The position numbers were made by a program, and so were the translations under genes. A stretch of 64,000 nucleotides of DNA from Candidatus Parcubacteria bacterium (GTDB lineage Bacteria > Patescibacteriota > Minisyncoccia > Minisyncoccales > JAGMDC01), in contig JAGLYZ010000001.1 of the NCBI GenBank assembly GCA_023131895.1, forward strand, positions 72,957-136,956, in the 5' to 3' direction. The notes beneath the pieces were generated by a model. That model was not told the origin of the DNA, made no database searches, and saw only the letters and a program-made list of their open reading frames with translations. Positions 23,013 through 42,845 of this stretch are shown here, piece after piece (within the stretch, counting starts at the first letter, position 1; each line of letters begins with the position of its first letter).

Positions 23013-23032
23013 CTTTTTTTCCGATTAATGTT

Positions 23033-25546: not shown

Positions 25547-25549
25547 ACA

Positions 25550-26230: not shown

Positions 26231-26236
26231 TCAAAA

Positions 26237-27151
26237 ATGCCTATAATAATCTCATTAAAGCGAATATTTAATGCAGGATGGAAAGGTTTTTATAAAAACA
26301 TAGGGCTTTCAATTGCTACAGTTTTTATTTTGGTCTTAGCTGTTTCTTTAGCAACTTCGCTTTTTATTATAAAAGACATCACAAAGCTTGTGATTGCTGA
26401 TTTTCAGGAAAAAGTTGATATTTCTGTTTACTTCAAAGAGGATTGTTTAGAAGAAGATATTTTTGTAATCAAAGAAGAGCTTGAAGCATTCTCTGAAGTA
26501 AAAAAAGTGGAATATGTTTCAAAAGAGCAGGCGCTTGAAGCTTTTAAGCAAAGGCATCAGGATGATGAGGTTTTAATGGGTTCATTGGAAGAATTGGGAA
26601 GAAATCCTTTTTTTGCTTCTTTGAACATTACATCTTGGCAGCCGTCCCAATACGAAGAAGTTGATAATTTTTTAAAAAATGCTGAATTCAACGAAAAAAT
26701 AGCAAAAATTGATTATTTCCAAAAGAAACCAATCATTGAAAAAATATTTTCCATAAGCTATCAAATTAACACAACAGGAATTATTTTGGCTTTGATTGTT
26801 TCTATTATTGCTATTTTAATTGTTTTTAACCATATTAAGCTGGCGATTTTAAATTATCATAAAGAGGTTGAGGTTCAGCGCCTGGTCGGAGCTGCCAATT
26901 GGTTTATAAGGGGACCTTTTGTAATCCAGTCAATACTTGCCGGCATATTTGCCGCTATTATTTGTCTTTTGTTTTTTACTGTAAGTATTTTCTTTTTAAG
27001 TCCTCAAATCGGAGAGATTGTTTCAGGATTTAATCTTTTTGAATATTTTGTAAGCAATTTATTTATTATATTCTTAATACAGCTTTTAACAGGCATTGGC
27101 TTGGGAGTAATCTCCAGTTTAATCGCCATCAGAAAATACCTAAAGGTGTAA
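26237..27151 (+). CDS. ftsX: Cell-division permease-like protein FtsX
   Basis: N-terminal TM, extracytoplasmic domain, and C-terminal 3-TM FtsX domain (EVEVQRLVGAANWFIRGPF). Confidence 0.88.
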   Translation: MPIIISLKRIFNAGWKGFYKNIGLSIATVFILVLAVSLATSLFIIKDITKLVIADFQEKVDISVYFKEDCLEEDIFVIKEELEAFSEVKKVEYVSKEQALEAFKQRHQDDEVLMGSLEELGRNPFFASLNITSWQPSQYEEVDNFLKNAEFNEKIAKIDYFQKKPIIEKIFSISYQINTTGIILALIVSIIAILIVFNHIKLAILNYHKEVEVQRLVGAANWFIRGPFVIQSILAGIFAAIICLLFFTVSIFFLSPQIGEIVSGFNLFEYFVSNLFIIFLIQLLTGIGLGVISSLIAIRKYLKV

Positions 27152-27170
27152 TTCTTGGAAAGCTAAATAT

Positions 27171-27241
27171 TGCCGGGTCGGCTAATGGTAGGCCAAATGC
27201 CCCTGGAGCATTGAATCTTGGTTCGAATCCAAGCCCGGCAG
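27171..27241 (+). tRNA. tRNA-Gln-like gene (anticodon position reads CUG) with a non-canonical anticodon loop CCCUGGA
   Basis: Acceptor TGCCGGG/CCCGGCA with U1-A72 and G73. D arm GGCT-AATGGTA-GGCC. Anticodon stem AATGC/GCATT. T arm CTTGG-TTCGAAT-CCAAG. C occupies positions 32 and 33 instead of the usual U33. Confidence 0.6.
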
Positions 27242-27243
27242 CC

Positions 27244-27274
27244 GTCATATGCTAAGTCAGGTGATTGAGCCGCC
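27244..27274 (+). repeat. Conserved tRNA trailer, copy A
   Basis: GTCATATGCTAAGTCAGGTGATTGAGCCGCC. Recurs at 30184, 37271 and, partially, 39040. Confidence 0.7.
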
Positions 27275-27281
27275 TAAAGGT

Positions 27282-27316
27282 CGCCTCCGCCAATTGGCGG
27301 AAAGGCGGTTTTTTTT
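27282..27316 (+). terminator. Intrinsic terminator after the tRNA and trailer
   Basis: CGCCTCCGCC-AATT-GGCGGAAAGGCGG hairpin plus T8. Confidence 0.7.
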
Positions 27317-27321
27317 AACAC

Positions 27322-27348
27322 TTGACGAACACCCTGAGGGGGTATAAT
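27322..27348 (+). promoter_or_regulatory. Promoter with embedded candidate CsoR-family operator
   Basis: TTGACG ... TATAAT. The spacer contains the G/C-tract pseudo-palindrome ACACCC-TGA-GGGGGTAT (27329-27345). Confidence 0.55.
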
Positions 27349-27377
27349 ATGAAATTATACAATTAGAAAATAAATAT

Positions 27378-27626
27378 ATGAGAAAAAACACAATAATCCA
27401 ACGTTTAAACATTGTCAAGGGTCAAATTGACGGATTGGCTAATCTTATAGAGAGAAAGGAGGATTGCCGCAAAATAACAGAGCAATTTTATGCAATCAAT
27501 GTTGGTCTGAAGAAAGTAATTGAAATGTATTTCAAGGACAATCTATCTTCCTGCCTAAAATCCATCAATCTTAAAAAAAGAAAAACTATTGAGTTTTTAT
27601 TAAAAGAAATAATTAAAAATAAATAA
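27378..27626 (+). CDS. CsoR/RcnR/FrmR-family (DUF156) repressor, CstR-like Cys-Asn-Cys variant
   Basis: IQRLNIVKGQIDGLANLIERKEDCRKI...YFKDNLSSC. Cys30, Asn55 and Cys59 have the CsoR C-25-H-4-C spacing, with the His position occupied by Asn. Confidence 0.75.
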   Translation: MRKNTIIQRLNIVKGQIDGLANLIERKEDCRKITEQFYAINVGLKKVIEMYFKDNLSSCLKSINLKKRKTIEFLLKEIIKNK

Positions 27627-27631
27627 TTTTT

Positions 27632-27964
27632 ATGTCAGATTTAATTTTAACTGATAAAAATTTCTCAGAAGAAGTTTTTAAAAGCCAAAAGCCAGTTTTG
27701 GTTGATTTTTGGGCCGAGTGGTGTGTGCCCTGCCAGATGATATCTCCAATTCTTCAAGAAATTGTTGATGAATTTGGAGAAAAAATAAAAATAGGCAAGA
27801 TTGATGTTGATAAAAACCCTTTAATTTCTGCTACTTTCTCAATAGATGCAATACCAGCATTAATTTTATTCAAGAATGGAAAAATAGTCCAAAGATTTAT
27901 CGGAGTTCAACCAAAGGAGATTATTACAGAAGCTGTTGAGTCTGTTATTGAAAAAGAAAGTTAA
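27632..27964 (+). CDS. trxA: Thioredoxin
   Basis: VLVDFWAEWCVPCQMISP active site, 110 aa, thioredoxin fold pattern. Confidence 0.9.
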   Translation: MSDLILTDKNFSEEVFKSQKPVLVDFWAEWCVPCQMISPILQEIVDEFGEKIKIGKIDVDKNPLISATFSIDAIPALILFKNGKIVQRFIGVQPKEIITEAVESVIEKES

Positions 27965-27974
27965 AACCAATTTT

Positions 27975-28784
27975 ATGACTAAAAAAATTGAAAAAATCAC
28001 AATTTTAGCCGGGATAAATAAATTCGGTAAAAAAGAAAATTTTGAAAAAATTGATATAAAAAAGGGAGAAGTAGTGGCGATTGTTGGCCATACTGGAGCA
28101 GGTAAAAGCCAGTTTCTTTATGATATTGAAAGATTGGCCCAAAAAGACACCAAAAGCCGACGAAAAATTTTAGTCAATGATGAAATTCCTGACAAAGAAA
28201 TAAGGTCTAATCCAAAAAGAAAATTAATCGCTTCATTGGCCCAAAGCATGAATTTTTTAACAGATATATCTGTTAAGGATTTTTTACAGTTGCATTTGGA
28301 ATCTCGCGGGAAGAAACCAAGACAGGGATTGCTTGAAGAAGTAATAGAGGAAGCTAATAAAATTACCGGCGAGGCAATTTCTCCTGAAATGAATTTGTTA
28401 AATTTATCCGGCGGGCAAAGCAGAGCCCTAATGGTTTCTGATGTGGCTAATATCAGCATTTCGCCCATTATTTTAATTGATGAGATAGAAAATGCCGGTA
28501 TTAAAAAAGAAGAAGCAATTAAAATTTTAGTAGAGGAGGGCAAAATTATTTTAATTGTTACCCACGACCCTTCTTTGGCATTAAACGCTGATAAAAGAAT
28601 TATTATCAAAGATGGAGGTATTGTTAAAATTCTAAATACTTCTTTAAAGGAAAAAGGTATTGCCTATTACCTTAATTGGATAGAGGGCTATAGCTTAGAT
28701 ATAAGAGAAAAAATAAGAAAAGGTGAAGAAATTAAAAACATAGAAATATACTGCGAACCAATTAAATCTAAGAATAATCTCTAA
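27975..28784 (+). CDS. Stand-alone ABC-type ATPase with no permease partner
   Basis: Walker A GHTGAGKS, signature LSGGQSRAL, Walker B ILIDEIE, H-loop VTHD. ATG 27975 preferred over the longer ORF. Confidence 0.7.
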   Translation: MTKKIEKITILAGINKFGKKENFEKIDIKKGEVVAIVGHTGAGKSQFLYDIERLAQKDTKSRRKILVNDEIPDKEIRSNPKRKLIASLAQSMNFLTDISVKDFLQLHLESRGKKPRQGLLEEVIEEANKITGEAISPEMNLLNLSGGQSRALMVSDVANISISPIILIDEIENAGIKKEEAIKILVEEGKIILIVTHDPSLALNADKRIIIKDGGIVKILNTSLKEKGIAYYLNWIEGYSLDIREKIRKGEEIKNIEIYCEPIKSKNNL

Positions 28785-28791
28785 AAATAAC

Positions 28792-29604
28792 ATGAAATTT
28801 ATAATTTTTGCCGGAACGCCCGGTTCAGGCAAAACAAGCATAATTAAATATATAATTCAAGAATTAAAAGATGATTTCAAATTGTTTTTCGTTAAGTTTG
28901 ATTGTCTGAAGACATCAGACAACGAACATATTGCTAAAAAATATAAAATTCCTGCCATTAAAAAATTAGCTGGAGAACTTTGCCCAGACCATTATACCGC
29001 TCTGGAAATTCCCAAGATAATTAAAGAGAACCAGGATAAAAATATTATTATTTTAGAAACTGCGGGCCTGTGTCTTCGTTGTTCTCCTTATATTAAAGAA
29101 GGGCTGGGGATCAATATCTTGGATATTACTTCGGGAGATCCTTTTCGCTACGGTCCGATTTTAACCGATGCGGATGTTGTGGCTGTTAGCAAAGGCGATT
29201 TAATTTCCCAAGCGGAAAGAGAAATTTTTAGAGCAAAGATTTTAAAGGTTAACCCTAAAGCAAAAATAGTGGAAGCTAACGGGCTTACCGGAGAAGGAGC
29301 CATTGATATCGTAGAATATATAAAAGCATCATCTTATATTGAAAAAGATAAAAAATTAACACTAAAACATTCTATGCCTTCGGCAATCTGTGGTTATTGT
29401 TATGGAAATAAAATAATTGATGAAAAAGAAACACAAAAAAGATATTTAGCCGGCAAGGAATTGAAAAATTTAGTTCCTAATTTAAATTGCGGAAAATGCG
29501 GATTCAAATCTTGCAATGAGTTTATCAGGGCGGTTTTAGACGGAAATGCAAAAAATGAACAGTGTCCATTTATTAAAAAAAAGGTTGTTGATAAAAAAGT
29601 ATGA
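28792..29604 (+). CDS. G3E-family (HypB/UreG/CobW-like) P-loop GTPase fused to a C-terminal RnfB-type Fe-S cluster domain
   Basis: GTPGSGKTS P-loop, ILETAG, SKGDL. C-terminal CGKCGFKSCNEFIRAVLDGNAKNEQCP matches the C-x2-C-x4-C...CP putative Fe-S domain. Confidence 0.65.
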   Translation: MKFIIFAGTPGSGKTSIIKYIIQELKDDFKLFFVKFDCLKTSDNEHIAKKYKIPAIKKLAGELCPDHYTALEIPKIIKENQDKNIIILETAGLCLRCSPYIKEGLGINILDITSGDPFRYGPILTDADVVAVSKGDLISQAEREIFRAKILKVNPKAKIVEANGLTGEGAIDIVEYIKASSYIEKDKKLTLKHSMPSAICGYCYGNKIIDEKETQKRYLAGKELKNLVPNLNCGKCGFKSCNEFIRAVLDGNAKNEQCPFIKKKVVDKKV

Positions 29605-29876
29605 TAGAGAAAAAACAAAAATTTGAACAATTGCTTGAAGAATATGAAAATTACGCAGAAAAAAACGGTTTTCGTTTAAATCCAGATCGAAAAGTAGTAA
29701 GTTATTTGATTAAAACGTTGCTGGAACGAGAAAGAAAATATGGCAGGAGGTATTGTCCGTGCCGTCGAATTAAGGAAAGCGAAAAAGAAAATAGCAAAAT
29801 TGTTTGTCCTTGCCTTTATTGTAAAAAAGAAATTAAAAAAGACGGACACTGTCATTGCTTTTTATTCGTAAAATAA
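29601..29876 (+). CDS. Ferredoxin:thioredoxin reductase catalytic-subunit-like protein
   Basis: CPCR...CPC...CHC cysteine pattern (YCPCRRIKESEKENSKIVCPCLYCKKEIKKDGHCHCFLF). Confidence 0.8.
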   Translation: MIEKKQKFEQLLEEYENYAEKNGFRLNPDRKVVSYLIKTLLERERKYGRRYCPCRRIKESEKENSKIVCPCLYCKKEIKKDGHCHCFLFVK

Positions 29877-29889
29877 TCTTAATAAAAAT

Positions 29890-30069
29890 ATGAGCAAATT
29901 TAAAATTAATAAATCAAAATGCGCTGGATGTGGAGCTTGCGTTGAAGTTTGTCCTTACGGGGCAATTAAAATTGGGGAAGATGGCAAAGCGGTCATAGAT
30001 GAAAAAAAATGTCAAAATTGTAGCAAATGCAAAGAAATTTGTCCTTTTAACGCTATAATTAAAAAATGA
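29890..30069 (+). CDS. 2x[4Fe-4S] ferredoxin (59 aa, below the ORF-track cutoff)
   Basis: My translation is MSKFKINKSKCAGCGACVEVCPYGAIKIGEDGKAVIDEKKCQNCSKCKEICPFNAIIKK, with two CxxCxxCxxxCP motifs. Confidence 0.85.
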   Translation: MSKFKINKSKCAGCGACVEVCPYGAIKIGEDGKAVIDEKKCQNCSKCKEICPFNAIIKK

Positions 30070-30140
30070 ACTGGTAATTTCAATTTCGATTAAAGGATAT
30101 TAGATTTTTGTTAGACGGGTTCGAACAAACTCTATCATAT

Positions 30141-30214
30141 GGAGCAGGCTAGTGAGGCGTTCGGAAGACCGAGGGGACTAGCTGTCATATACTAAGTCAG
30201 ATGACAGAGCCGCC
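30141..30214 (+). repeat. Degraded tRNA-3'-half-like segment plus conserved trailer, copy B
   Basis: ...GTTCGGAAGACCGAGGGGACTAGCT then GTCATATACTAAGTCAGATGACAGAGCCGCC. CTGTCAT/ATGACAG forms a 7-bp hairpin. Confidence 0.6.
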
Positions 30215-30267
30215 CAGCACTGGGTCATTTTTATCTATCGCCAAAGAGGCGATTTTTTGGTTTGGTC

Positions 30268-30295
30268 TTGACTTTTTTGTTTTTAAAATTAGTAT
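30268..30295 (+). promoter_or_regulatory. Promoter of DUF502 cassette 1
   Basis: TTGACT, 16 nt, TAGTAT. Near-identical copy at 37385-37412. Confidence 0.55.
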
Positions 30296-30335
30296 TAAAA
30301 ATACAGCACATAATATATGAAAAAGAGGTGAGAGG

Positions 30336-30857
30336 ATGAAAAAAAGAATAGGAAAATTTGTTTTTGGGGCTTTAAGGACAGGTATTCTATTATTCATCGG
30401 GATAGGAATACTTGGTTTGGTGATAGATTCAATACTAAAGGGAAACAGTTTTTTTTTAGGTCTGATTCCAGGATTGCAGAATCAACCAATACTTGTCAAA
30501 GCAGGTCTTGGGCTTCTGTTCTTAATAGTCATAGGAGCAGTCATAAACTCCTTGATGAGCAAAGGAAAGCAACACTGAATTTTGACAAGATTGACTTCAG
30601 TAGGACATCTTTCAGAAAACCTATTGAATGCTCAGGTAGTAGGGATTGAGGTATTTCCTGGAAAATATCTTTTGGGCTTTACTAATAACGAAGTGATTTC
30701 CAACCCTAAAGTTAATCTTGTTCCAGTGATGGTCCCGAACACACCTGTTCCCTTTACCGGATTTACCTTTTTGGTAGAGAAAGAGTCCCTGAAAGAAATT
30801 GATATGAAGCCCTATGAAGCATTTGCTGTATTGGCAAGCGGAGGATTTTTAAGATAA
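30336..30857 (+). pseudogene. DUF502-family membrane protein interrupted by a single in-frame TGA (30576-30578)
   Basis: The ORFs at 30336-30578 and 30582-30857 are in the same frame. Together they give the DUF502 architecture (IPGLQNQP..., VPNTPVPFTGFTFLVEKESLKEIDM, LASGGF). Confidence 0.6.
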
Positions 30858-30868
30858 CATTTAAGAGA

Positions 30869-30899
30869 AGCTTAGAATAAAATTCTAAGCTTATTTTTT
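30869..30899 (+). terminator. Terminator of DUF502 cassette 1
   Basis: AAGCTTAGAAT-AAA-ATTCTAAGCTT plus a T-run. A paralogous copy lies at 38055-38092. Confidence 0.7.
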
Positions 30900-30928
30900 A
30901 TTTAAAATTATCGCCAATTGGGCTTGGC

Positions 30929-30982
30929 TTGACAGATATCTCTTTGTTTTGATATACTAAAATAACTTACCACTCGGTAAGT
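30929..30982 (+). promoter_or_regulatory. tetR-operon promoter plus palindromic operator
   Basis: TTGACA (30929-30934), 18 nt, TATACT. Inverted repeat ACTTACC-N4-GGTAAGT at 30965-30982. Confidence 0.55.
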
Positions 30983-31006
30983 AAATCTTAAACTGACTAT
31001 AAAATT

Positions 31007-31606
31007 ATGGCTATTGAAAAACAACAAGAAGATATTATTCAAGGCACCAAAAAACACATTATTGAAGTCGCTGGTAGACTTTTTTCAGAATATAGCTATT
31101 TAGGCGTTTCCATGAGTGATATCGCTAAAAAACTTAATATTACTAAAGCCGCGCTTTATTATCATTTCACAGGCAAGACAGAAGTTTACATGAAAGTGCT
31201 TGATGAAGTTTTTGGCAATTTAAGTTTGTCGCTTGGAGAAGCGTTTAACGAGAGGACAATTAACAAAAAGTTGCATAAGCTTATTAAGAATTATTTAGAT
31301 TTTGGTTTTAAAGAGAAAAATCTTATTAAATCTTTAATGTTGAAAATATCGCCAGCTGATCCCCAGATAGGAAAACACATTATTCAATTAAGAGAACAAA
31401 CTATTAACTTAATTCAACCAGTAATTAAAGAAATGATTGCAAACAAAAAATTAATACAAAAAGTTGATAGCAAATTATTGACTTCTCTGCTTACTGGAAT
31501 GATGGATGGATTACTTTTAGAATACTCATTTTTAGATAAAAAAATTGATTCAGAAAAAGTGTCAAATCAAATTATCGCAGTGTTATTTCAAAATGTCGAT
31601 GAATAA
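31007..31606 (+). CDS. TetR/AcrR-family transcriptional regulator
   Basis: N-terminal HTH FSEYSYLGVSMSDIAKKLNITKAALYYHF. Confidence 0.88.
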   Translation: MAIEKQQEDIIQGTKKHIIEVAGRLFSEYSYLGVSMSDIAKKLNITKAALYYHFTGKTEVYMKVLDEVFGNLSLSLGEAFNERTINKKLHKLIKNYLDFGFKEKNLIKSLMLKISPADPQIGKHIIQLREQTINLIQPVIKEMIANKKLIQKVDSKLLTSLLTGMMDGLLLEYSFLDKKIDSEKVSNQIIAVLFQNVDE

Positions 31607-31628
31607 CAATATAGGATTTTATTAAGTT

Positions 31629-31739
31629 ATGGAATTATTAACTATTACAAACCTTCATCCTCTTGCATTCATTGTATGGACAGCAATGGGAGTAGCTTTA
31701 GTATATTACTGGCTGTCCAGTTTTGGTCTATTTAAGTAA
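31629..31739 (+). CDS. Possible 36-aa hydrophobic peptide between tetR and the GT2 gene
   Basis: MELLTITNLHPLAFIVWTAMGVALVYYWLSSFGLFK. The stop lies 1 nt before the GT2 ATG. Confidence 0.25.
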   Translation: MELLTITNLHPLAFIVWTAMGVALVYYWLSSFGLFK

Positions 31740-31740
31740 A

Positions 31741-32520
31741 ATGTTAAGCATTATTATACCTACCTTAAATGAAGAGGAGTATCTTCCTTTTCTTTTAGGT
31801 TCAATTAAAAAACAGACCTTTCAAGATTATGAGATTATTGTTGCTAATGCAAATTCCAGAGACAAAACCAAACAGATAGCAAAAGAGCAGGGATGTCTAT
31901 TAGTGCAAGGAGGTTTGCCTTCTGTTGGTCGAAATAGAGGAGCTGAGGCTGCTGATGGAGACCTGCTTTTATTTTTAGACGCCGATGTTATTTTACCACC
32001 CAACTTTTTAAAAGAGATTTTAAGAGAATTTAAAACAAGTCAACTTGATATTGCTTCCTGCTTTGTTTCGCCTTTGAGTGATAAAGGAATTGATAATATA
32101 CTTTATGGTTTTGGCAATCTGTATTACGCAATGAGTCAGCATATTGAACCTCAAGCTCCAGGTTATTGCATTTTGATTAAAAAAAAGATACATCAAATAA
32201 TAAATGGTTTTGATGAGAAAATAAAAATAGCCGAAGATTGGGATTATATCAGCAGAGCAAGCAAAGAAGGTAAATTCAGATTTCTTTCTAATGGTAAAAT
32301 TTTTGTGTCTATGAGAAGATTTGAAAGAGACGGAAGGATTAATGTCGCTTTTCAACGAGTAATAGGAACAATATATGTCTTTTTATTTGGAGGAATTAAA
32401 TCCGATGTCCTATTTAAATATTATCGCTTCGGAGATTATCCTGAGAGAGCGCTAAAACCAATTGTTAACTGTTATACAAAGTTTTTTAATCAAGTTAGCG
32501 ATAAATGGTTTAAGGATTAA
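31741..32520 (+). CDS. Family 2 glycosyltransferase
   Basis: LSIIIPTLNEEEYL and LLLFLDADVIL (DxD). ATG 31741 preferred over TTG 31723. Confidence 0.85.
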   Translation: MLSIIIPTLNEEEYLPFLLGSIKKQTFQDYEIIVANANSRDKTKQIAKEQGCLLVQGGLPSVGRNRGAEAADGDLLLFLDADVILPPNFLKEILREFKTSQLDIASCFVSPLSDKGIDNILYGFGNLYYAMSQHIEPQAPGYCILIKKKIHQIINGFDEKIKIAEDWDYISRASKEGKFRFLSNGKIFVSMRRFERDGRINVAFQRVIGTIYVFLFGGIKSDVLFKYYRFGDYPERALKPIVNCYTKFFNQVSDKWFKD

Positions 32521-32522
32521 TT

Positions 32523-33356
32523 ATGGATAAGACAGTATTTAGGCAATCAAAAGGGTATTTCCAAATGTTGAGAATTAAAGATTGGATAAAATCAACCTTT
32601 TGGATTCCGCTTATTGGAGCGGTTTTAGTCCACACTTCTTTGCAAAGTTTTTTTCTTATCGCTATAATTTATTTTTGCGCCACTGCTTATAGTTTTGTTA
32701 TAAATAATTATTTTGATATAGAAATTGACAAAAAACATAAAGAGAAAATTAAAGCAAATACAAATCCGTTGGCTCAAGGCATTATATCTAGAAAAGGCAC
32801 TCTGATGCTTTTAGGAATTTTATTGTTCATTCCTCTTATTTTAGCTATTCGGATGAGTTTTATCGGATTTATTCTTGTATTATTAAGCATTTTTGCCTCT
32901 ACTCTTTATTCTGCGAAACATATTCGGCTTAAAGAAAAACCTGGTTTAGATATAATTATTTCTGGACTTATGTTTGGATTTTTTCCTTTTTTAGCTGGAG
33001 CGACTTTAGCTGGAGGAGGTCTTAATTTTCCTATAATCTTAGTTGGAATTTTGTTTACAATATTAAGCAGCACAGGTCTTTTAGCTCATCAGGCAGTTGA
33101 TTATGAGCAGGATTTAGGAAACACAAAAACTTTTGCCATAAAAATCGGTCTAAAGATGAGTTGTATCTGCTTAATTTTATTTATCGTAGCCTCTTTATTG
33201 TGTTTTGAGTTTATATGCCAATTTTTTACTATTGAGTGGTGGCTTCATTATTCTATACTTATGTTTTTAGCATTTTGCTTTCCTCTTCGCTATATTAAAG
33301 AAATTAAAAATATAATTAAAATATGTTTTTTAAGAGAATCCCCAAATTTGTTTTAG
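32523..33356 (+). CDS. UbiA-family prenyltransferase / polyprenyl-phosphate transferase
   Basis: NNYFDIEIDKKHK (NxxxDxxxD) and a second Asp-rich region HQAVDYEQD. About 8 TM segments. Confidence 0.8.
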   Translation: MDKTVFRQSKGYFQMLRIKDWIKSTFWIPLIGAVLVHTSLQSFFLIAIIYFCATAYSFVINNYFDIEIDKKHKEKIKANTNPLAQGIISRKGTLMLLGILLFIPLILAIRMSFIGFILVLLSIFASTLYSAKHIRLKEKPGLDIIISGLMFGFFPFLAGATLAGGGLNFPIILVGILFTILSSTGLLAHQAVDYEQDLGNTKTFAIKIGLKMSCICLILFIVASLLCFEFICQFFTIEWWLHYSILMFLAFCFPLRYIKEIKNIIKICFLRESPNLF

Positions 33357-34030
33357 AATGTCTGCCAGTTATTTTATTAACTGGAATATACATAAATTTT
33401 GCCAGGCTGGTTGAATTTTTTAAAAGACCCGATTACGATTGGCTTTTAGCTTCTATTGATCGGTTTTTATTTTTTGGGGAACAGCCAAGCTTTCTTTTAG
33501 AAAGATTTATTTCACCTTTTTTAACCGAATATATGAATTTCAGTTATGGATTTTATATTTTTTTATTTCCCATTATCTTAGGGCTATTTTATTTCCAAAG
33601 AAAATATCAGGCGTTTTACTCTTTAAGAAGAGCTTTAATTATAGCCATAATGATTAGTTTTGCCTTTTATTTAGCAGTTCCTGCAGTTGGTCCATATATT
33701 ATTTTTAAGGATTTTTATTCAATTGAATTACAAGGCGGATACATTACTAAAGCCACTCAGAAATTATTAGATTTGTTTCTCTATAATAGAGGTGAATTTC
33801 CCAGCTTGCATGTTGCCCTCAGCGCAATTATTTTATTTTTTAGCTATAAATATTCCCGCAAGTTATTTATTTTTTATTTACCTTTGATACCAAGTCTTTG
33901 GTTTGCCACAATCTATCTTAGGTTTCATTATTTCGTTGATATAATAGCTGGATTTCTTTTAGCTTTTTTTGCTATCTGGTTAAGTTTAAAAATTCAAAAT
34001 AATGATAAACTCAAAAAAAGATGGACATAA
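33323..34030 (+). CDS. PAP2-superfamily membrane phosphatase/phosphotransferase
   Basis: FPSLHVALS and RFHYFVDIIAG motifs (PAP2 C2/C3-like). Polytopic. Confidence 0.65.
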   Translation: MFFKRIPKFVLECLPVILLTGIYINFARLVEFFKRPDYDWLLASIDRFLFFGEQPSFLLERFISPFLTEYMNFSYGFYIFLFPIILGLFYFQRKYQAFYSLRRALIIAIMISFAFYLAVPAVGPYIIFKDFYSIELQGGYITKATQKLLDLFLYNRGEFPSLHVALSAIILFFSYKYSRKLFIFYLPLIPSLWFATIYLRFHYFVDIIAGFLLAFFAIWLSLKIQNNDKLKKRWT

Positions 34031-35058
34031 ATTTTTATCTTATTTTTGAAATTTTATGCGTAGCAGCCTTTCTGCTTATTTTTTTAAGGGCTATTTATCA
34101 AAGAAATAGAGGAACTATTTTTGAACTATTAGCTGCTTTTGCTTTTGGTTTACTTTTAGAGATAATTAATATTTATTTTTTTCACGCTTACTATTACAGT
34201 GATCAATTTTTATTGAGAATTTTTGATGTGCCTATAGCAGTTGGTCTTGGCTGGGCAGTGATTATTTACAGTGCCATGCTTTTGTCAGACCAATATAGGG
34301 TTTCTTGGACAATTAAACCTATTTTTGATGCCTTTACTGCTTTAGTTTTGGATTTGTCTATGGATGCAGTGGCTATTCGGCTACATTTTTGGCATTGGCA
34401 AATTCCTCTTGATCAGGAATGGTATGGTGTCCCTTTTGAGAATTTATTTGGCTGGATCGTTGTTGTTTTTAGTTTTTCTTTTATTATTCGTTTTATCCGC
34501 ACACTCAATCCTAAAAGATTTTTAACTAAAATACTCCAATGCTTTAGTCCTTTAATTACTTACGGTCTTTTTTATCTTGGATTAAATCTTTTTTTGATAT
34601 TAGCCATTGCTCCTTTCCAGATTAATTATTTAGGTGATTGGTCTCACCTTTTTAATCTGTGCTTTAAACACGATATTGCCATTATTTATCATCCCCAAGT
34701 GCAGTTTTGGAAAATGGTTATTTTAATTATCATTATTATAGAGATGGTTAATATTATGGCTTATAAAGTGTTGAAATCCAAAAATATTATTCAATGGCAC
34801 TTTGATGTTCTATCCTTCAGTATTTTAACAGCCATGCATTTATTATTTATGATTAGTTTGGTGATAACTAATATTTATCAAACCTTGCCATTTTTGCTTT
34901 TTATAGCAATTTTTATGTTTTTAGTTCATTTGGCCTTGCACTTTGCGCCATTATTTTTACAAAAAGAAAAACATATCTATTTTTTTAGAAAAATCTCGCC
35001 TCAAATTATTAAGACTAAAAAGCAAATAGAAACTATTATTGAATCTAAGCTAAAATAA
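34021..35058 (+). CDS. DUF422 / carotenoid-biosynthesis-protein-family membrane protein
   Basis: LLLEIINIYF, PIAVGLGWAVIIY, LDLSMDAVAIRLHFWHW and YGVPFENLFGWIVV resemble the PF04240-type pattern, recalled from memory. Confidence 0.5.
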   Translation: MDINFYLIFEILCVAAFLLIFLRAIYQRNRGTIFELLAAFAFGLLLEIINIYFFHAYYYSDQFLLRIFDVPIAVGLGWAVIIYSAMLLSDQYRVSWTIKPIFDAFTALVLDLSMDAVAIRLHFWHWQIPLDQEWYGVPFENLFGWIVVVFSFSFIIRFIRTLNPKRFLTKILQCFSPLITYGLFYLGLNLFLILAIAPFQINYLGDWSHLFNLCFKHDIAIIYHPQVQFWKMVILIIIIIEMVNIMAYKVLKSKNIIQWHFDVLSFSILTAMHLLFMISLVITNIYQTLPFLLFIAIFMFLVHLALHFAPLFLQKEKHIYFFRKISPQIIKTKKQIETIIESKLK

Positions 35059-35074
35059 TTTAAGAATTAGAAAA

Positions 35075-36313
35075 TTGTATATAATAAAAGATTTTAAAGT
35101 TGCATTATTTTTGGGATACAAATCAATTGTAAATGGTCATAAGGGCACCATTGTTTTAATGATTTTCATTCTATCATTGGCTTTTGTTAATTTGGTATTT
35201 GTGGCCTCTATTTTAAATGGCATTACAGATACTATTAATAATCAACTTATTGATAACTCGGTAGCTAATATTATTGTTGATCCCCAAGAGGAGCCAAAAA
35301 GAAAAGACTATATTTTACACGCAAAAGAACTGCGGCAAAGCATTGAAAGTCTGCCAGGTGTGGTTGCAACTATTGCGCACTATAAAATGACCGCTACTTT
35401 TGCCTATGATAAAGATAAAGATGGTGATTTTAAATACGGCACATGGGAAGTCATCGGCATTGATCCAAAAGAAGAACCACTGGTAACTGGAATCTCAAAT
35501 CACATTATTATGGGTCGTTATTTAGAAGGACGAGGAATTGGCGATATTGTCTTAGGTTCTGATATTGCTGGCGGTTACGGAGCGCTTGAAGAATTTAGAA
35601 GTCTTGGGGGTGTAGGGGTTGGTGAAAAAGTAAGACTTAACTTTGGCAATGGAATAACAAGAAAATATACTGTTCAAGGTATTTCCAAAGTGCGATTTAC
35701 TCTTATTGATCAGATAGCTTATATCACCGCAAAAGAAGCAAAGTCAATCCTGCAAACCAGTGATGATAGAGTTTCACAAATCTTGGTTAAGATTGATGAG
35801 ACCGGCAATGAAGATTGGTATATTGAGAAAATTAGAGAAATGGCGCCTAATTTAAAAGTTAGGAAATGGACAGAATATACTAGCATAGTCGGCGATCTTA
35901 CAAAAAGTTTTGATTTAATAGCGGCAATGATCAGCCTTATCGGTTTAGCCGTGGCCGCTGTTACAATTTTTATCTTAATCTATGTCAATGCGATAAATAA
36001 AAGACGCCAAATCGGAATTTTAAAAGCAATCGGCATTAAAGAAAATATCATTATTATTTCTTATATTTTACAGGCATTATTTTATGCAATTTTTGGTATT
36101 GTGTTTGGCTTTATTATAATGTTTTATGCTGTTGAACCGTATTTTATAAATCACCCATTAGCATTTCCTATCGGTGATATCACTTTAACTATTAAAGAAT
36201 TTCAAGTTCTTCAAGGCGTTTTTGGTCTTTTGGGCGCAGCTTTTGTGGCTGGACTTATTCCAGCATGGCGTGCGGCCAGAGAAAATATCTTAAAAGCTAT
36301 TTGGGGAGCATAA
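35075..36313 (+). CDS. ABC transporter permease, MacB/FtsX-like
   Basis: N-terminal TM, large extracytoplasmic domain, and C-terminal FtsX domain (RRQIGILKAIGIKE). TTG start. Confidence 0.8.
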   Translation: MYIIKDFKVALFLGYKSIVNGHKGTIVLMIFILSLAFVNLVFVASILNGITDTINNQLIDNSVANIIVDPQEEPKRKDYILHAKELRQSIESLPGVVATIAHYKMTATFAYDKDKDGDFKYGTWEVIGIDPKEEPLVTGISNHIIMGRYLEGRGIGDIVLGSDIAGGYGALEEFRSLGGVGVGEKVRLNFGNGITRKYTVQGISKVRFTLIDQIAYITAKEAKSILQTSDDRVSQILVKIDETGNEDWYIEKIREMAPNLKVRKWTEYTSIVGDLTKSFDLIAAMISLIGLAVAAVTIFILIYVNAINKRRQIGILKAIGIKENIIIISYILQALFYAIFGIVFGFIIMFYAVEPYFINHPLAFPIGDITLTIKEFQVLQGVFGLLGAAFVAGLIPAWRAARENILKAIWGA

Positions 36314-36321
36314 ATAAAAAT

Positions 36322-37008
36322 ATGAGTATTTACGTTGAAGTAAAAAATTTAAAAAAGATTTATCACGGCAAGGTTCCAACACATGCTTTGAAAGGTGTCA
36401 CTTTTGATGTTAAAGAAGGTGAATTTGTGGCAATCATGGGTAAGAGTGGCGGTGGAAAATCAACATTACTTCACCAGCTGGGACTTTTAGATATTCCCAC
36501 AGAAGGAACATTGTTAATTGATAATACTGAAGTTTTGAAGTTAAGTAATCATCAAAAGACTTTATTTAGACTTCAACGTTTGGGTTATATTTTTCAAGAA
36601 TACGCACTGATTTTTGAATTGACAGCGTTGGAAAATGTTTTATTGCCAGCATTTGCTTTAAATGGCTCACAACAGAGCTATAGAGAAAGAGCAATTGATA
36701 TGCTTGACAAGGTTGGCTTAAAAGAACGAGTAGATCATCGCCCCCATGAATTATCTGGTGGTGAACAGCAAAGAGTGGCGATTGCCAGAGCCTTAATTAA
36801 CAACCCAAAGATTTTGTTTGCTGATGAGCCAATGGCGAATTTAGACACTAATTCTTCAAGACAAATTTTAGAACTTTTCCAAAAATTGAATAAAGAATTA
36901 AGGCAAACAATTGTTATGGTGACACACGAACCAGATGATCAAAAATATGTTGACAGAGTTATTTGGATTAAAGATGGGTTGATTGAAAAGGAAGAGAAAG
37001 TCGTCTAA
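36322..37008 (+). CDS. ABC transporter ATP-binding protein, MacB/LolD-like
   Basis: GKSGGGKSTLL, LSGGEQQRVAIARAL, LFADEPMANLD. ATG 36322 preferred. Confidence 0.9.
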   Translation: MSIYVEVKNLKKIYHGKVPTHALKGVTFDVKEGEFVAIMGKSGGGKSTLLHQLGLLDIPTEGTLLIDNTEVLKLSNHQKTLFRLQRLGYIFQEYALIFELTALENVLLPAFALNGSQQSYRERAIDMLDKVGLKERVDHRPHELSGGEQQRVAIARALINNPKILFADEPMANLDTNSSRQILELFQKLNKELRQTIVMVTHEPDDQKYVDRVIWIKDGLIEKEEKVV

Positions 37009-37270
37009 GAAATTAAATTTGTCACTATACAGTTAAAATAGAAAAGTTTTCTACTGGATAATTTTTTTGCTTAAAAAATAGCGGATAGCAGAATGAGTGT
37101 ACCCGAAATGTCGCTCAACGAAGATGTCAAATGAGGAGGATTTTGAGAAATGGTGAGTAGCAGGGTAGAGCAAAATCTGATATAATGATTTTAAGCTTAT
37201 GGGCTTAAATCTGGGATGTAAATATACTCGGTTTGGCTTTGAATAATCGTTCTAACATCCTTCACGATGG

Positions 37271-37307
37271 TCAGCCATCATATACTAATTCAGGTGACCG
37301 AACCGCG
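37271..37307 (+). repeat. Conserved trailer, copy C
   Basis: TCAGCCATCATATACTAATTCAGGTGACCGAACCGCG. Shares CAGCCATC and GTGACCGAACCGCGTAAAAAAATT with copy D. Confidence 0.6.
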
Positions 37308-37322
37308 TAAAAAAATTAAAAA

Positions 37323-37373
37323 ACCTGTTGATGTTTGACATCAACAAACCGTCTCACCAAAGAGGCGGTTTTT
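37323..37373 (+). terminator. Bipartite terminator repeat, copy 1
   Basis: CCTGTTGATGTTTGACATCAACAA hairpin, then ACCGTCTC-ACCAAA-GAGGCGGT plus T6. Confidence 0.6.
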
Positions 37374-37384
37374 TGTTTTCGGAC

Positions 37385-37412
37385 TTGACTTTTTTGTTTT
37401 TAAAATTAGTAT
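37385..37412 (+). promoter_or_regulatory. Promoter of DUF502 cassette 2
   Basis: TTGACT, 16 nt, TAGTAT. The promoter and 5' UTR are nearly identical to 30268-30335. Confidence 0.55.
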
Positions 37413-37452
37413 TGGAAATACAGTACATAATATATAAAAAAGAGGTGAGAAG

Positions 37453-38060
37453 ATGAGAAAAGAAATAGGAAAATTTGTTTTTGGTGGATTGAAGATCGGG
37501 ATAGTAGTGTTATTGCAATAGGACTGGTAGGTTGGATTATAGGCCTGTTATTAATGGGGATTAATCTTTTTTTAAGATTTATTCCTGGCTGGCAGAATCA
37601 AGGTTTATTGATAAAAACAACCGTAGTATTTCTGGTTTTAATTGCTGCGGGAACGGTTATAAACCTTCTATATCACTACCTAAAGATAAAAATAGATGAA
37701 AGAGAGTCAATGCTGATAGATTGGCTAAAAATTCTGTTTTCTTTCAAGCACATCTCTGAGAATATAAAAAAAGGCATACCCTGTATTGCTGAAATAGGAG
37801 GTGTCTATCTTGTAGGATTTGTTAATGGAGAGTATTTAGACAATCCCGATTTACAGAATGTTCCGGTGTTTGATCCTACTAGTCCAAATGTAACTACAGG
37901 AATTGGCCCGATGGTGCCTAAGAAAAAAGTAAAAAAGCTTGATATAACCAAAGCGGATGCAATGACTTACGTTATAAGTGCAGGGTTTGGGAACACAGAT
38001 AAAGCAATAAAAAGCATAAACGACACCATTGAAGAGTATAAAAGACAAAGAAATGCTTAG
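37453..38060 (+). pseudogene. DUF502-family membrane protein paralog with a frameshift near 37507-37512
   Basis: ATG 37453 gives MRKEIGKFVFGGLKIGIVV (homologous to MKKRIGKFVFGALRTGILL of copy 1), then stops. Homology continues in the -1 frame (VIAIGLVGWIIG...IPGWQNQ...DPTSPNVTTG). Confidence 0.6.
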
Positions 38061-38258
38061 AATTTAGAATAAAATTCTAAGCTTATTTTTTTAATTAAAG
38101 TTATCCATAATTTGGCCTTGACACGATTTTTGAAACATATAAACTGATAATTGCCTACTGGCTAATAAGTTAACCAGTAGATAAGAAAGGAGATAGCTTT
38201 TTTGTAAAAAAATATGGGGGAGTAATTAAGAAGAAAGAAAAATTTTAGGAGGTAAAAA

Positions 38259-38453
38259 ATGTTTCCTGTGTATGATGTAGAGGAATTAAGAGAACTTCTT
38301 GGTATAGAAGAGATAGGAAAAGAGATGCAACGACCATGGGCAAGAGTTTGTATGTTTTTTATAATTCCTCTTGTAATAATAAAAGAGGATATAAAACAAC
38401 TCTTGCACACAAAAGTCAAAAGAAAGAAGATAGAAAACGAGAGACAAAAATAG
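38259..38453 (+). CDS. Small hypothetical membrane protein (64 aa)
   Basis: Strong SD TAGGAGGT 8 nt upstream of the ATG. One TM segment (VCMFFIIPLVII). Confidence 0.5.
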   Translation: MFPVYDVEELRELLGIEEIGKEMQRPWARVCMFFIIPLVIIKEDIKQLLHTKVKRKKIENERQK

Positions 38454-38539
38454 AAAAGAGCATAGACAAAATCTAACTATGCTCTATTTTTTATTAAAGT
38501 ATCTTTTACTCTCAACGGTTTTTTGGTAGAATTGAAATA

Positions 38540-38827
38540 ATGAAAATTTACATAGAGAAAAATAAATTTAATGAAAATTTATATAGCTTTATGAGAGATT
38601 GCGGGTATATGTCTTTTCATGACAGCTATATAAGGCATTTGGCTCCAAGCGGTTATCCACGGTTCCATATTTATACAAGCGAAACAGATGATAAATATAT
38701 TCTCAATCTGCATCTTGATCAAAAGAAACCAAGTTATGGCAGAGAAAGCGCGCATAGCGGAGAATATGACGGACAGGTTGTGGAACAAGAAGCAAGAAAA
38801 ATACAAAACAAGATTGACCAATTTTAA
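38540..38827 (+). CDS. Hypothetical protein (95 aa)
   Basis: Clean ORF with its own intergenic flanks. YPRFHIY...LHLD motif. Family not recognised. Confidence 0.5.
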   Translation: MKIYIEKNKFNENLYSFMRDCGYMSFHDSYIRHLAPSGYPRFHIYTSETDDKYILNLHLDQKKPSYGRESAHSGEYDGQVVEQEARKIQNKIDQF

Positions 38828-38885
38828 AAATGTTTAAGGTCAGGTTTAAAACTATTTAAATTTGACAAAATTATACTAAAATAGA

Positions 38886-39060
38886 GGTCAGGAAAACAGG
38901 GTCAGGAGCCTTTTTGAACTGAAAAGTGAAAAATAGGGGAGACCGAGAGGCATTGTGAGACACTCCTAAAAACGGCTAAATTTTCCCTTAAAGTCTTGGT
39001 TCAAGACCGAGCTTGCCAGCCATCTTGAGCGCGGTTCGTGTGACCGAACCGCGTAAAAAA
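38886..39060 (+). repeat. Non-coding unit D: GGTCAGG direct repeats, structured segment, tRNA T-arm/acceptor-like segment and trailer
   Basis: GGTCAGG at 38886 and 38900. CTTGGTTCAAGACCGAGCTTGCCAGCC (38995-39021) matches the tRNA 3' part at 20 of 27 positions by manual alignment. CGCGGTTCG/CGAACCGCG hairpin. Confidence 0.55.
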
Positions 39061-39132
39061 ATTGCCACCTCGGTAAATTTTCGATATAGTGAAAATATCG
39101 ATAACATAAAACAATCTTATTTTTAAAAACTT

Positions 39133-39387
39133 ATGGGAAAAGAACCAGAACCAAATATCTACGAACAACCTAAAAAAGAGGAATCCAAAATAGGACAACC
39201 CAAAATTGAGGAGGTTAAACTTGAAGGCGGGGGACAAAGAGAAAAAGAGCAAGCGCCGGAAGAAATTGAGGGCGATTACCTTATGATGACCTATTTAGAT
39301 GAGAAGGGAGGTATCGGTGAGGGAATTCCTTTAGAAATTTCCCGTGTTAAAAAAGCGACTTTAAGAAAATCTTTAATAGAAAAATAG
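39133..39387 (+). CDS. Small acidic hypothetical protein (84 aa)
   Basis: ORF only. Low-complexity E/K-rich N-terminus. Confidence 0.4.
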   Translation: MGKEPEPNIYEQPKKEESKIGQPKIEEVKLEGGGQREKEQAPEEIEGDYLMMTYLDEKGGIGEGIPLEISRVKKATLRKSLIEK

Positions 39388-39404
39388 TATCAGTGGAGGG
39401 AAAT

Positions 39405-39629
39405 AGTCAGGAAAATAGTGTCAACTTTGATTTTTCAAAATGCCGTTATACAAAAAATATGTAAATGGATAGAAACGAAAAAAAATATACTCATTAGCAC
39501 TGTCTCATTTTAGCTTAAAACGCATCGACTGAGACGCACCCGCCTTGCCGGCGAGGCAGATCGGTGAAACACTCCCAAAATAGTCGAATTTACCCTTAAA
39601 ACACGGGTTCTAAACCGATTATGGCAGCA
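39405..39629 (+). repeat. Non-coding unit E, paralogous to unit D
   Basis: AGTCAGG...TGTCAAC box. GTGAAACACTCCCAAAATAGTCGAATTTACCCTTAAAACACGGGTTCTAAACCGATTATGGCAGCA aligns with unit D. Carries a GC-rich palindrome insert, CCGCCTTGCCGGCGAGGCAG. Confidence 0.5.
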
Positions 39630-39686
39630 TAGAAATCTGAAGCACAATAAAATTACTTAAAGATTACTTATTATTTTTATCATTTT

Positions 39687-40010: not shown

Positions 40011-40031
40011 TTGTAAACTTTAATCAAAAGA

Positions 40032-40083
40032 CCTGTTGATGTCTGACATCAACAGGACCCATTGCCAAAACGGCGGCTTTTTT
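40032..40083 (+). terminator. Bipartite terminator repeat, copy 2
   Basis: CCTGTTGATGTCTGACATCAACAGG (11-bp stem), then ...GCCAAAACGGCGGC plus T6. Confidence 0.6.
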
Positions 40084-41328: not shown

Positions 41329-41540
41329 TATTATCTCTCAATCAGATAATCATCATTCAGACCTTACAGTTATGACTTCTTGCACGAGGCAGCAATTTCG
41401 CTGCCTCGTGCTTTTGTTTTTCATTGAAAAAAACCAAAAAATGAGTTAAATTAAACGTATAAAGCATAAACTCTATTATCAATGTTAGGGAAAATGGGGT
41501 CAACTCTATTTTTTTAGGGAAATTGGCTTAACTTTTTATT

Positions 41541-42455: not shown

Positions 42456-42836
42456 ATGTTAGAGAAAGATTTTGAAAAATTAGTTAAAAAAGCCATTGTG
42501 AGATTACCTAAACATATCCAAAAGAAAATGGATAATGTGGCTATTGTAACCAAGAAAAAACCTTCTCAATATGAATTGGAAAAAACTGGGATAAAAATAG
42601 GAGGAGCGCTTTTAGGGCTTTATCAAGGAGTTCCTAAAATAGCTTGGGGCAGGGGTTTTGGCATGATACTGCCAGATAAAATTACTATTTTCCAGGACTC
42701 AATTGAACAAATGGCTTCTTCGCAGGATGAAATAAAGGAATTAGTTAAAATCGTTGTTTGGCACGAAATTGCCCACCACTTCGGCTTTAATGAAAGCCAA
42801 ATCCGCAAATTAGAGGCCAAGTGGAAAAAGAGATAA
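42456..42836 (+). CDS. Zincin-like metallopeptidase-family protein (DUF1025/Zincin_1 type)
   Basis: C-terminal VVWHEIAHHFGF (HExxH) in a ~125-aa protein. Confidence 0.7.
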   Translation: MLEKDFEKLVKKAIVRLPKHIQKKMDNVAIVTKKKPSQYELEKTGIKIGGALLGLYQGVPKIAWGRGFGMILPDKITIFQDSIEQMASSQDEIKELVKIVVWHEIAHHFGFNESQIRKLEAKWKKR

Positions 42837-42845
42837 TTCAAAGAA

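Follow-up and report, generated by a model that had tools for sequence, protein, structure and literature searches.

Four probable tandem integrase-less islets at the 3' end of a tRNA-Gln gene in a Candidatus Parcubacteria genome: a probable hot spot for large serine recombinase elements

A 64-kb stretch of DNA from a Candidatus Parcubacteria bacterium (contig JAGLYZ010000001.1; hereafter the window) contains a tRNA-Gln(CTG) gene followed by a short sequence, the trailer, which recurs further downstream between blocks of genes. This arrangement raises the question of how the repeats arose and whether the blocks between them arrived as separate insertions. The evidence indicates, with a probability of about 80%, that the region of 27.2-39.6 kb consists of four tandem islets, none with an integrase, which were inserted serially at the 3' end of tRNA-Gln(CTG); this end would then be a hot spot for elements carrying a large serine recombinase (LSR) in Parcubacteria and related bacteria of the Candidate Phyla Radiation (CPR). 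The original prediction, made from the window alone, had proposed four to five stacked islets including a redox operon; four were delimited here, and the redox operon is the first of them.

The target gene was located by ARAGORN at 27171-27243, with an Rfam tRNA score of 54.4 bits, and is directly preceded by ftsE-ftsX (Pfam); this gene and all the repeat units, arms, and islets described below lie on the + strand. The trailer 20-mer TCATATRCTAAKTCAGRTGA was found in three exact copies in the window, at 27245, 30185, and 37278, against a chance expectation of 0.02, and none of 100 shuffles gave three. The repeat unit measures 35-40 nt and reads CAGCC-N-TCATATRCTAAKTCAGRTGA..., or YAGCY-R-TCATATRCTAAKTCAGRTGAYNGARCCGCS when the flanks are included. 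A repeat search of the window grouped the three copies (A, B, and C) as a single 40-nt family, and they were the only matches in the window to a hidden Markov model (HMM) of the trailer. This model drew on 127 distinct copies, almost all of them from other genomes, with the window's own copies not excluded. Copy A is formed by the last bases of the tRNA, CAGCC (27239-27243), and the trailer M_A (G TCATATGCTAAGTCAGGTGATTGAGCCGCC; 27244-27274; HMM E = 4.7e-14). Copy B (30179-30218; E = 2.3e-10) has the core TAGCT and the trailer M_B (TCATATACTAAGTCAGATGACAGAGCCGCC), and copy C (37272-37311; E = 1.4e-11) has the core CAGCC (37272-37276) and the trailer M_C.

Two further sites, D and E, are related to these copies in part. 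The original prediction had placed the trailer at four sites beyond the tRNA; B and C carry it exactly, D retains only its right half, and E has none. Copy D (39017-39053) has a left arm and the core CAGCC (39017-39021), followed by A and a second trailer type, TCTTGAGCGCGGTTCGTGTGACCGAACCGCG, in which the left half is replaced by the different sequence TCTTGAGCGCGGTTCGT. As TCTTGAGCGCGGTTCGT also directly follows tRNA-Gln in another genome (L150; L-numbers are the locus labels of the compared contigs), the trailer of D represents a distinct type, and an origin of D as an aberrant palindromic product was rejected on the same observation. The sequences reported earlier as common to C and D were recovered as CAGCCATC and as the exact 24-mer GTGACCGAACCGCGTAAAAAAATT at 37294 and 39040. 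A recount agreed that the arm of D matches the T-arm and acceptor of the tRNA at 20 of 27 positions. Site E (39505-39629) is a left arm only, related to that of D, and is followed by TAGAAATCTGAAGCAC. Each of the five sites is in an intergenic gap at an operon end or block boundary, as had been noted before. On the 3' side of A, B, and C alike come a terminator-like hairpin and, beyond it, a promoter-like site. At A these are a hairpin with a T-run directly 3' of M_A (27280-27317), which was read from the sequence and was not listed by the terminator scan of the window, and a promoter-like match at 27322-27350. At B the terminator and promoter scans gave 30237-30262 and 30268-30295, and at C a hairpin (37322-37350) is followed by a terminator (37346-37381).

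The gene blocks between the repeats vary among close relatives, and one of the breakpoints falls in the repeat core. The L154 contig, which came from another sample and is ~99.5% identical, corresponds to window positions 24614-27278 (99.4%) joined to 37272-38056 (99.6%), so that the tRNA joins copy C directly and islets 1 and 2 (10.0 kb) are missing. The alignment showed A-type sequence through CAGCC and C-type sequence from the next base, which places the switch inside CAGCC. The longest run of identity common to A and C is no more than 8 nt, and an assembly collapse or RecA-dependent recombination is therefore an unlikely cause of the L154 junction. In L033 (~95% identical), the tRNA and trailer are followed by a B-type terminator and then by a homologue of the window gene at 38540, and two further copies with unrelated cargo lie downstream. 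Four copies occur on the JAGMDC contig, of which L021 and L004 are both pieces, and a Zincin_1 gene comes after the last of them. This gene, at 42456 in the window, recurs in relatives and marks the hot spot's conserved right flank; L033 and JAGMDC hold arrays that differ from the window between the same flanks, and in L139 an LSR element is followed by the Zincin_1 homologue. The shorter array in L154 and the different one in L033 are the kind of synteny evidence that the original prediction had called for. On the left, ftsE-ftsX-tRNA-Gln is conserved, and the downstream content is different in every relative. The L160 contig is 99.3% identical overall, yet it has five differences within 35 nt of copy A. 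The contig ends of L155 and L156 inside the tRNA were rejected as evidence of variation, because the break lies ~55 nt before CAGCC; they may be due to a second tRNA-Gln gene.

The distribution of the trailer motif was then determined across genomes. A scan of one genome per species gave 44 loci, of which ~37 are in Patescibacteria or in unclassified metagenome-assembled genomes (MAGs) with the same site context and two are in one 'Humimicrobiaceae' MAG; the remainder are chance matches in coding DNA. A metagenome scan gave at least 100 loci. The census, which allowed up to 4 mismatches, comprised 163 copies at about 137 CPR loci, and the 21-nt core of the motif was nearly invariant over divergent hosts. 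Of the 163 copies, 57 immediately follow tRNA-Gln(CTG or TTG), at the CCA position, three follow tRNA-Trp, and one follows tRNA-Glu. Two host contexts were recognized, ftsEX-tRNA-Gln(CTG) and dnaX-tRNA-Gln(TTG). The 24 loci with at least two copies have them as direct repeats in every case, at a spacing of 135 nt to 4.3 kb. In other genomes, LSR-less islets span 0.14-4.3 kb, and their cargo includes Fic, DUF4145, Hsp20, pyrophosphatase, M29 peptidase, YceG, and NADAR proteins, whereas the LSR-bearing elements exceed 8-10 kb.

Seven ftsX-tRNA-Gln loci picked via FtsX alone served as an unbiased sample. The M-type trailer directly followed tRNA-Gln in none of the seven, and it is therefore not a universal host trailer; other LSRs are present at three of these loci, and L150, also in this sample, has a trailer of the D type. 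The idea that the trailer is a conserved host sequence used as the attB site was rejected on this result. It also fails because the trailer follows tRNA-Trp and tRNA-Glu where an LSR is present, and because in L163 it occurs only on the LSR side.

All-against-all clustering of open reading frames (ORFs) showed that an LSR is the commonest ORF family at the motif loci, being present at 25 of them. The protein is ~430 aa long and, in L010, L011, L017, and L042, comprises the Pfam domains Resolvase, Recombinase, and Zn_ribbon_recom; phage-type serine integrases combine these three domains in proteins of about 430-500 aa or longer. Its best PDB match is SPbeta SprA/YokA (E = 2.4e-16, residues 16-385), and it is no more than 27% identical to the best-covering phage integrases among the matches listed. 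In 23 of the 25 loci the gene is convergent with the motif, at a distance of 54-2450 nt on the downstream side of a copy; the remaining two are L093 and its duplicate L137, where a 60%-identical variant occurs in a complete element. Conversely, two loci chosen by the LSR alone both have a copy 1.5-2.9 kb past the LSR stop codon in the expected orientation. The LSR gene also follows some non-tRNA copies (L097, L133, L139, and L068), as expected where a newer element stands in front of an older one. In the window itself no recombinase of any kind was found by tblastn or by Pfam analysis of 40 ORFs, in agreement with the earlier statement that an integrase is lacking there, and the islets of the window are accordingly non-autonomous. 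Tandem site-specific integration, as first proposed from the window, thus draws support from the L154 junction, the arrays of relatives, and the association with the LSR.

The LSR elements carry a terminase large subunit, a small helix-turn-helix (HTH) protein, and DNA methylases, and for this reason they look prophage-like. Two of them reveal the structure of their ends. At the near end of L093, tRNA-Gln ...CCAAGCCCGGCAG is followed by AGCAAGG.., the LSR, the terminase, and the methylase, and at its far end ...CCAAGCCCGGCAG is followed by the M trailer, CCATCATATGCTAAGTCAGGTGAC; the direct repeat CCAAGCCCGGCAG equals the last 13 nt of the tRNA and ends at CAG. At the near end of L163, tRNA-Gln-CAGCC-A is followed by the M trailer, with the LSR 1.5 kb away, and at its far end, ~10 kb on, the arm ..GGTTCCAGACCGAGGTGTTCAGCAC is followed by non-motif DNA. 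Furthermore, the type of trailer followed the clade of the LSR: the L010 type occurs with M, the 59-60% type with ..GTATCGAG(GCC/T)GACC..., and the 36-37% type with AWTTGTAW... As a separate observation, four loci, L093 (Ga0209542_10003322), L097, L135, and L163, hold prophage-like CPR elements that seem to be whole or nearly so (at least 8-11 kb); their genes encode a serine integrase, a terminase large subunit, ParB-N6_N4 or HsdM methylases, and DUF4145/Ymh; none of the four gave a motif match in IMG/VR. Another prophage-like element, L162, on an 804-kb CPR contig, has a diversity-generating retroelement (reverse transcriptase RVT_1 + bAvd; 12245-13625) between its att copy and the serine recombinase gene.

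The upstream arms of the non-tRNA copies form recurrent families, including a class of true tRNA-Gln 3' remnants. Class 1 reads ..GGTTCTAACRTCGTCCA..CAGCCA, class 2 reads ..GACCGAGACG..AATTTCCCCTTAAAAC..GGTTCTAGACCGAGG..CAGCCR, and class 3 reads CCTTGCGGGGTCTCAC..GGGGTTCGCAACTGACTCAGTCAGCAG. A T-loop-like GGTTC box is retained in the arms some 20-25 nt before the core. When HMMs of classes 1 and 2, built from other genomes only, were applied to the window, class 2 matched the arms of D (38921-39021; E = 2.4e-18) and E (39505-39629; E = 1.1e-12), and class 1 matched that of C (37175-37277; E = 8.6e-5). The arm of B (about 30140-30184) is decayed and matched neither model. The arm of E is of class 2, ends in CAGCA, and is 80% identical to positions 5456-5381 of L004. 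The original prediction had regarded these segments as decayed T-arm copies of the resident tRNA; this part does not stand for C, D, and E, since models from foreign genomes match them and they are thus not local relics. To judge from their recurrence, the T-arm-like arms appear to be element-borne tRNA mimics conserved over genomes. It was also observed that class 2 arms start with a sequence resembling the right half of the trailer (GACCGAGACGC; e.g., 38935-38951 and 39525-39540) and hold repeated GAGAC/GTCTC boxes, which might bind accessory proteins or be what is left of an older junction.

A scheme can be proposed from these data. The attP site of an incoming element would consist of a tRNA-like left arm (P), with its GGTTC box ~20-25 nt from the core, and a conserved trailer on the other side (P'; for type M, TCATATGCTAAGTCAGGTGACYGAGAYGC), which in autonomous elements lies just past the 3' end of the convergent LSR gene. 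The trailer is assigned to the element as P' and the arm as P because of the ends of L093 and L163, the trailers that follow LSR clades, and the unbiased loci. Integration would leave the tRNA with the trailer at the near end and the arm with the previous trailer at the far end, and each new insertion would shift older junctions outward. As a result, A would be the tRNA with M, where M_A is the putative integrase-side half-site of islet 1; B, C, and D would be an arm with a trailer, the trailer of D being the putative P' side of islet 4; and E would be an arm with the original host DNA. Every islet would accordingly have a trailer, a terminator, and a promoter at its start and an arm at its end. 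The absence of a trailer at E is explained if E abuts the original host DNA at the far end of the oldest insertion, and an analogous far end, an arm followed by a non-motif trailer, is present in the single-element locus L163. The islets would have arrived in the order 4, 3, 2, 1, with the youngest nearest the tRNA. The rebuilt tRNA and nested order of the original prediction are retained in this scheme, but the progressive outward decay of the copies is a weak trend only: the tRNA-proximal copy was the best match to the consensus in 8 of 11 independent arrays, which is not significant. The islets would have been moved in trans by the LSRs of co-resident prophage-like elements, in a manner resembling cis-mobilizable islands, or may now be fixed.

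The crossover probably lies in the terminal CAGCC, at CC. The core in the window was placed by the L154 junction, and the tRNA-Trp (CTGCC) and tRNA-Glu (CTACC) sites have only CC in common with the CAGCC of tRNA-Gln, which points to this dinucleotide. A crossover at the GG of the trailer dyad CTaAGTCA-GG-TGACTgAG was rejected, because L154 is C-type at the first base after CAGCC and the direct repeat of L093 ends at CAG.

Several observations weigh against serial integration by LSRs. Phage-type LSR att sites are ~40-50 bp long, with a central crossover dinucleotide and little identity between attP and attB; the block of identity between attP and attB is ~35 bp here, longer than is usual for LSRs. 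Conservation of the L010-type LSR is unusually high (77-92% over >120 clusters), which could partly mean vertical retention. Some arms sit behind housekeeping-like genes, such as engB, and the GC content is flat over the region, with no compositional signal of an island. The motif had no match in IMG/VR, which was searched for free phage copies, no circular or excised junction was seen, and, with no recombinase in the window, the current mobility of these islets is unproven. Finally, the right-side junction of L033 lies in the T-run of a terminator (GGTTTTTTGG) and not at an att copy, so other recombination also reshapes the array.

This last junction is one of the points that favor an origin without site-specific recombination, namely segmental duplication followed by homologous or microhomology recombination and gene conversion among the promoter, terminator, and trailer modules. 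The blocks after B and C do form a diverged duplication, in which the non-coding flanks are better kept than the ~60% identical coding part, and hairpin/terminator modules are repeated at 37314, 40022, and 42835. However, the identity runs between A and C are too short for RecA, and the 10-kb difference of L154 ends exactly at CAGCC, where the direct-repeat core of the complete element L093 also lies. Moreover, local duplication cannot explain the array, because its arms and trailers belong to families that span ~137 unrelated loci, with LSRs alongside. This explanation is therefore considered improbable.

It is slightly less probable still that the units are functional RNAs, such as tRNA-like 3'-UTR signals or small RNAs released by RNase P/Z, which are selected at operon ends and merely exploited by recombinases. 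In favor of this, every copy is found on the coding strand where an operon ends, just before a terminator; their 21-nt core is nearly invariant, and the arms retain the T-loop-like GGTTC. No conserved fold was detected, however. Alifold analysis of 122 distinct motif copies gave only a 3-bp stem (-1.5 kcal/mol), with no supported helices or covariation, and an alignment of class 2 arms (~105 nt) also gave -1.5 kcal/mol, with a mean z of -0.3 versus shuffles. A full 5-bp T-stem was present in 48 of 48 tRNA copies versus 19 of 82 non-tRNA arms, and Rfam returned the tRNA only, at the gathering threshold and even at E < 5. Covariation, which the original prediction had named as the mark of RNAs maintained for their function, was thus looked for without success. 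These results indicate that sequence, and not structure, is conserved, and a known RNA family or a structured RNA was rejected by Rfam, alifold, and the shuffles. An RNA function also fits poorly with the lack of the motif after tRNA-Gln in all seven unbiased relatives, with the same trailer after tRNA-Trp and tRNA-Glu where an LSR is present, and with the switch of trailer type with LSR clade. Accordingly, annotation of the repeats as tRNA pseudogenes or novel RNAs should be avoided.

Use of the att sites by another recombinase, e.g., a tyrosine integrase encoded elsewhere, is very improbable: tyrosine integrases typically use the 3' ends of tRNA genes and leave long identity segments (Islander database; PMC4383910), and the ~35-bp segment is atypical for LSRs, but no tyrosine recombinase family was among the recurrent neighbours at the ~137 loci, the LSR adjoins the motif in convergent orientation at 23 of the 25 LSR loci, and the trailer type covaries with the LSR clade. 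The search for a tyrosine or serine integrase suggested by the original prediction pointed to a serine enzyme.

Serial integration at tRNA-Gln divides the window as follows. Islet 1 (27244-30184; 2.9 kb), missing from L154 and L033, is the redox operon; by Pfam it comprises the trailer and terminator, a CsoR-like repressor, thioredoxin, an ABC ATPase-like protein, a CobW/Fe-S protein, the beta subunit of ferredoxin-thioredoxin reductase (FTR), ferredoxin, and arm B. Islet 2 (30185-37277; 7.1 kb), missing from L154, contains the trailer, terminator, and promoter, a split gene for a small membrane protein, TetR, GT2, UbiA, PAP2, Caroten_synth, a MacB-type permease, an ABC ATPase, and the class 1 arm (Pfam). 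Islet 3 (37278-39021; 1.7 kb) holds the trailer and promoter, a paralogous membrane-protein gene (frameshifted here and intact in L154), small ORFs, a 95-aa gene (38540-38827), and the class 2 arm; in L033 no other gene separates the homologue of this 95-aa gene (91% aa identity) from the tRNA. Islet 4 (39022-39629; 0.6 kb) consists of the D-type trailer, an 84-aa ORF (39133-39387), and the class 2 arm E.

Both paralogous membrane-protein genes, one at 30336-30857 after copy B and one at 37444-38060 after copy C, are broken in this assembly, whereas they are intact on contigs from other samples. The first is split by a stop codon at 30576-30578, and an ORF of L158 (150 aa, cut by the contig start) spans the split; in the second, a 1-nt deletion leaves only an ORF at 37554-38060, and the corresponding ORF of L154 begins with MRKEIGKF and is at least 201 aa long. 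They may be either pseudogenes or homopolymer assembly errors. In these duplicated blocks only the coding part is as low as ~60% identical, and the non-coding flanks are much better kept: the promoter/5' stretches (30253-30394 and 37370-37511) are 82% identical over 142 nt, and the terminator hairpins (30872-30899 and 38064-38091; 28 nt) are 100% identical. The flanks suggest gene conversion or selection on regulatory modules. A hairpin-plus-terminator module, AAAAGACCTGTTGATGT.TGACATCAACA...GGCGG.TTTTT, also recurs after unrelated genes at 37314-37374, 40022-40082, and 42835-42898 with 77-81% identity.

The closest analogue appears to be the ssrA islands of Dehalococcoides, and by this comparison the array would belong to the known type of tandem tRNA/small-RNA island. 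Several ssrA genomic islands (ssrA-GIs) stand in tandem behind a single small-RNA gene, whose 3' end recurs as a direct repeat at the boundaries of each island (McMurdie et al. 2011, PMC3146451). Extra conserved bases surround the repeat, a CcrB-like LSR is encoded on the reverse strand by attL, many islands without an integration module are read as cis-mobilizable, and the number of islands is strain-variable (PMC3146451). The array in the window resembles them in its tandem direct repeats, the reverse-strand serine recombinase of related loci, the islets without a module, and the strain variation. It differs in that the target is tRNA-Gln (occasionally Trp or Glu) and not transfer-messenger RNA, the crossover is at the discriminator/CCA position and not in the T-loop, a trailer of 21-35 nt outside the tRNA belongs to the repeat, and the arms mimic tRNA; the islets are 0.6-7 kb and often single-gene, the hosts are CPR bacteria, and the autonomous elements are prophage-like, with a terminase.

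Other known systems share part of this anatomy. Among staphylococcal cassette chromosome (SCC) elements, pseudo-SCC elements without ccr genes are mobilisable in trans. The SCC target is a protein-coding gene, the SCC repeats are short, and two recombinase subunits are used with no tRNA mimicry, unlike the present system; on the other hand, SCCmec and composite SCC elements at rlmH (orfX), with CcrAB, likewise join a serine recombinase to the 3' end of a conserved gene and place repeats between stacked elements (PMC3146451). The sequence relation is distant, as the closest phage integrases were no more than 27% identical to the CPR enzyme. tRNA-gene (tDNA) islands and prophages similarly have a regenerated tRNA at one end, a displaced 3' fragment at the other, and tandem arrays at one tDNA, but they usually have a tyrosine integrase and an identity block inside the tRNA, whereas the repeat here is mostly downstream and the enzyme is of the serine type (PMC4383910). 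Among the features by which such islands are recognized, which also include excision to a circle carrying attP, two were present: an intact tRNA with a direct repeat of its 3' end (CAGCC and trailer at A-D, with the core TAGCT at B, and the 13-nt repeat of L093), and presence/absence polymorphism with a junction at the repeat (L154, with a different array in L033). An integrase gene inside the island was absent from the window and present at the 25 related LSR loci, and tandem islands with and without an integration module, the sign of accretion, are represented by the 24 multi-copy loci, the LSR-less islets, and the larger LSR-bearing elements. Integron cassette arrays likewise line up small units in one orientation, mostly of a single gene and without a recombinase, each with a terminal recombination site. 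Unlike integrons, however, no IntI tyrosine recombinase, attI, or folding attC was found here, the repeats lack a conserved hairpin, and the islets carry their own promoter-like sites and terminators.

More tentatively, the recombinase-less islets might constitute a CPR-specific cassette system of tiny, often single-gene units. Each unit, starting with a trailer and ending with a tRNA-mimic arm of ~100 nt, would be moved in trans between lineages by prophage serine integrases and docked serially behind tRNA-Gln, a possibility that seems somewhat less than even. If true, it would be the serine-recombinase counterpart of the integron and a shared pool of flexible genes for genome-reduced bacteria. 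A search of the available literature found no paper on this tRNA-Gln system. CPR bacteria have very small genomes and poorly described mobile elements, for which the present data point to a concrete hot spot and a likely enzyme, and they also suggest the att anatomy of a widespread, highly conserved LSR family. The CsoR/thioredoxin/FTR/ferredoxin and TetR/glycosyltransferase/ABC operons are strain-variable accessory DNA here. The 21-nt trailer may serve as a simple marker for flexible regions and prophages in CPR metagenome bins, and the LSR with its att pair is a candidate source of genetic tools for a group having none.

Beyond site E, positions 41491-41514, between the UPF0047 gene and the gene upstream of it, agree at 23 of 24 nt (E = 0.003) with the left arm of one L004 att copy and with L028. 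This may be a further decayed junction, in which case the array could reach towards the Zincin_1 gene. The right flank encodes a PG_binding_1 protein (40228-41328), the Zincin_1 metallopeptidase (42456-42836), and the cyclophilin ppiB (43849-44463). The original prediction had named mscS and ppiB as flanking genes; ppiB was confirmed, and no MscS domain was detected by Pfam among the window ORFs tested. Elsewhere in the window, a 430-aa ORF amid housekeeping genes (11888-13180) had no Pfam match at E < 1e-5, and a class A RNase P RNA was located at 17900-18302 (125.5 bits). A tRNA-Gly(CCC)/tRNA-Thr(CGT) pair lies at 22865-23013, and the order tRNA-Gly, tRNA-Thr, ftsEX, tRNA-Gln also occurs in L011 and in six of the seven unbiased FtsX relatives.

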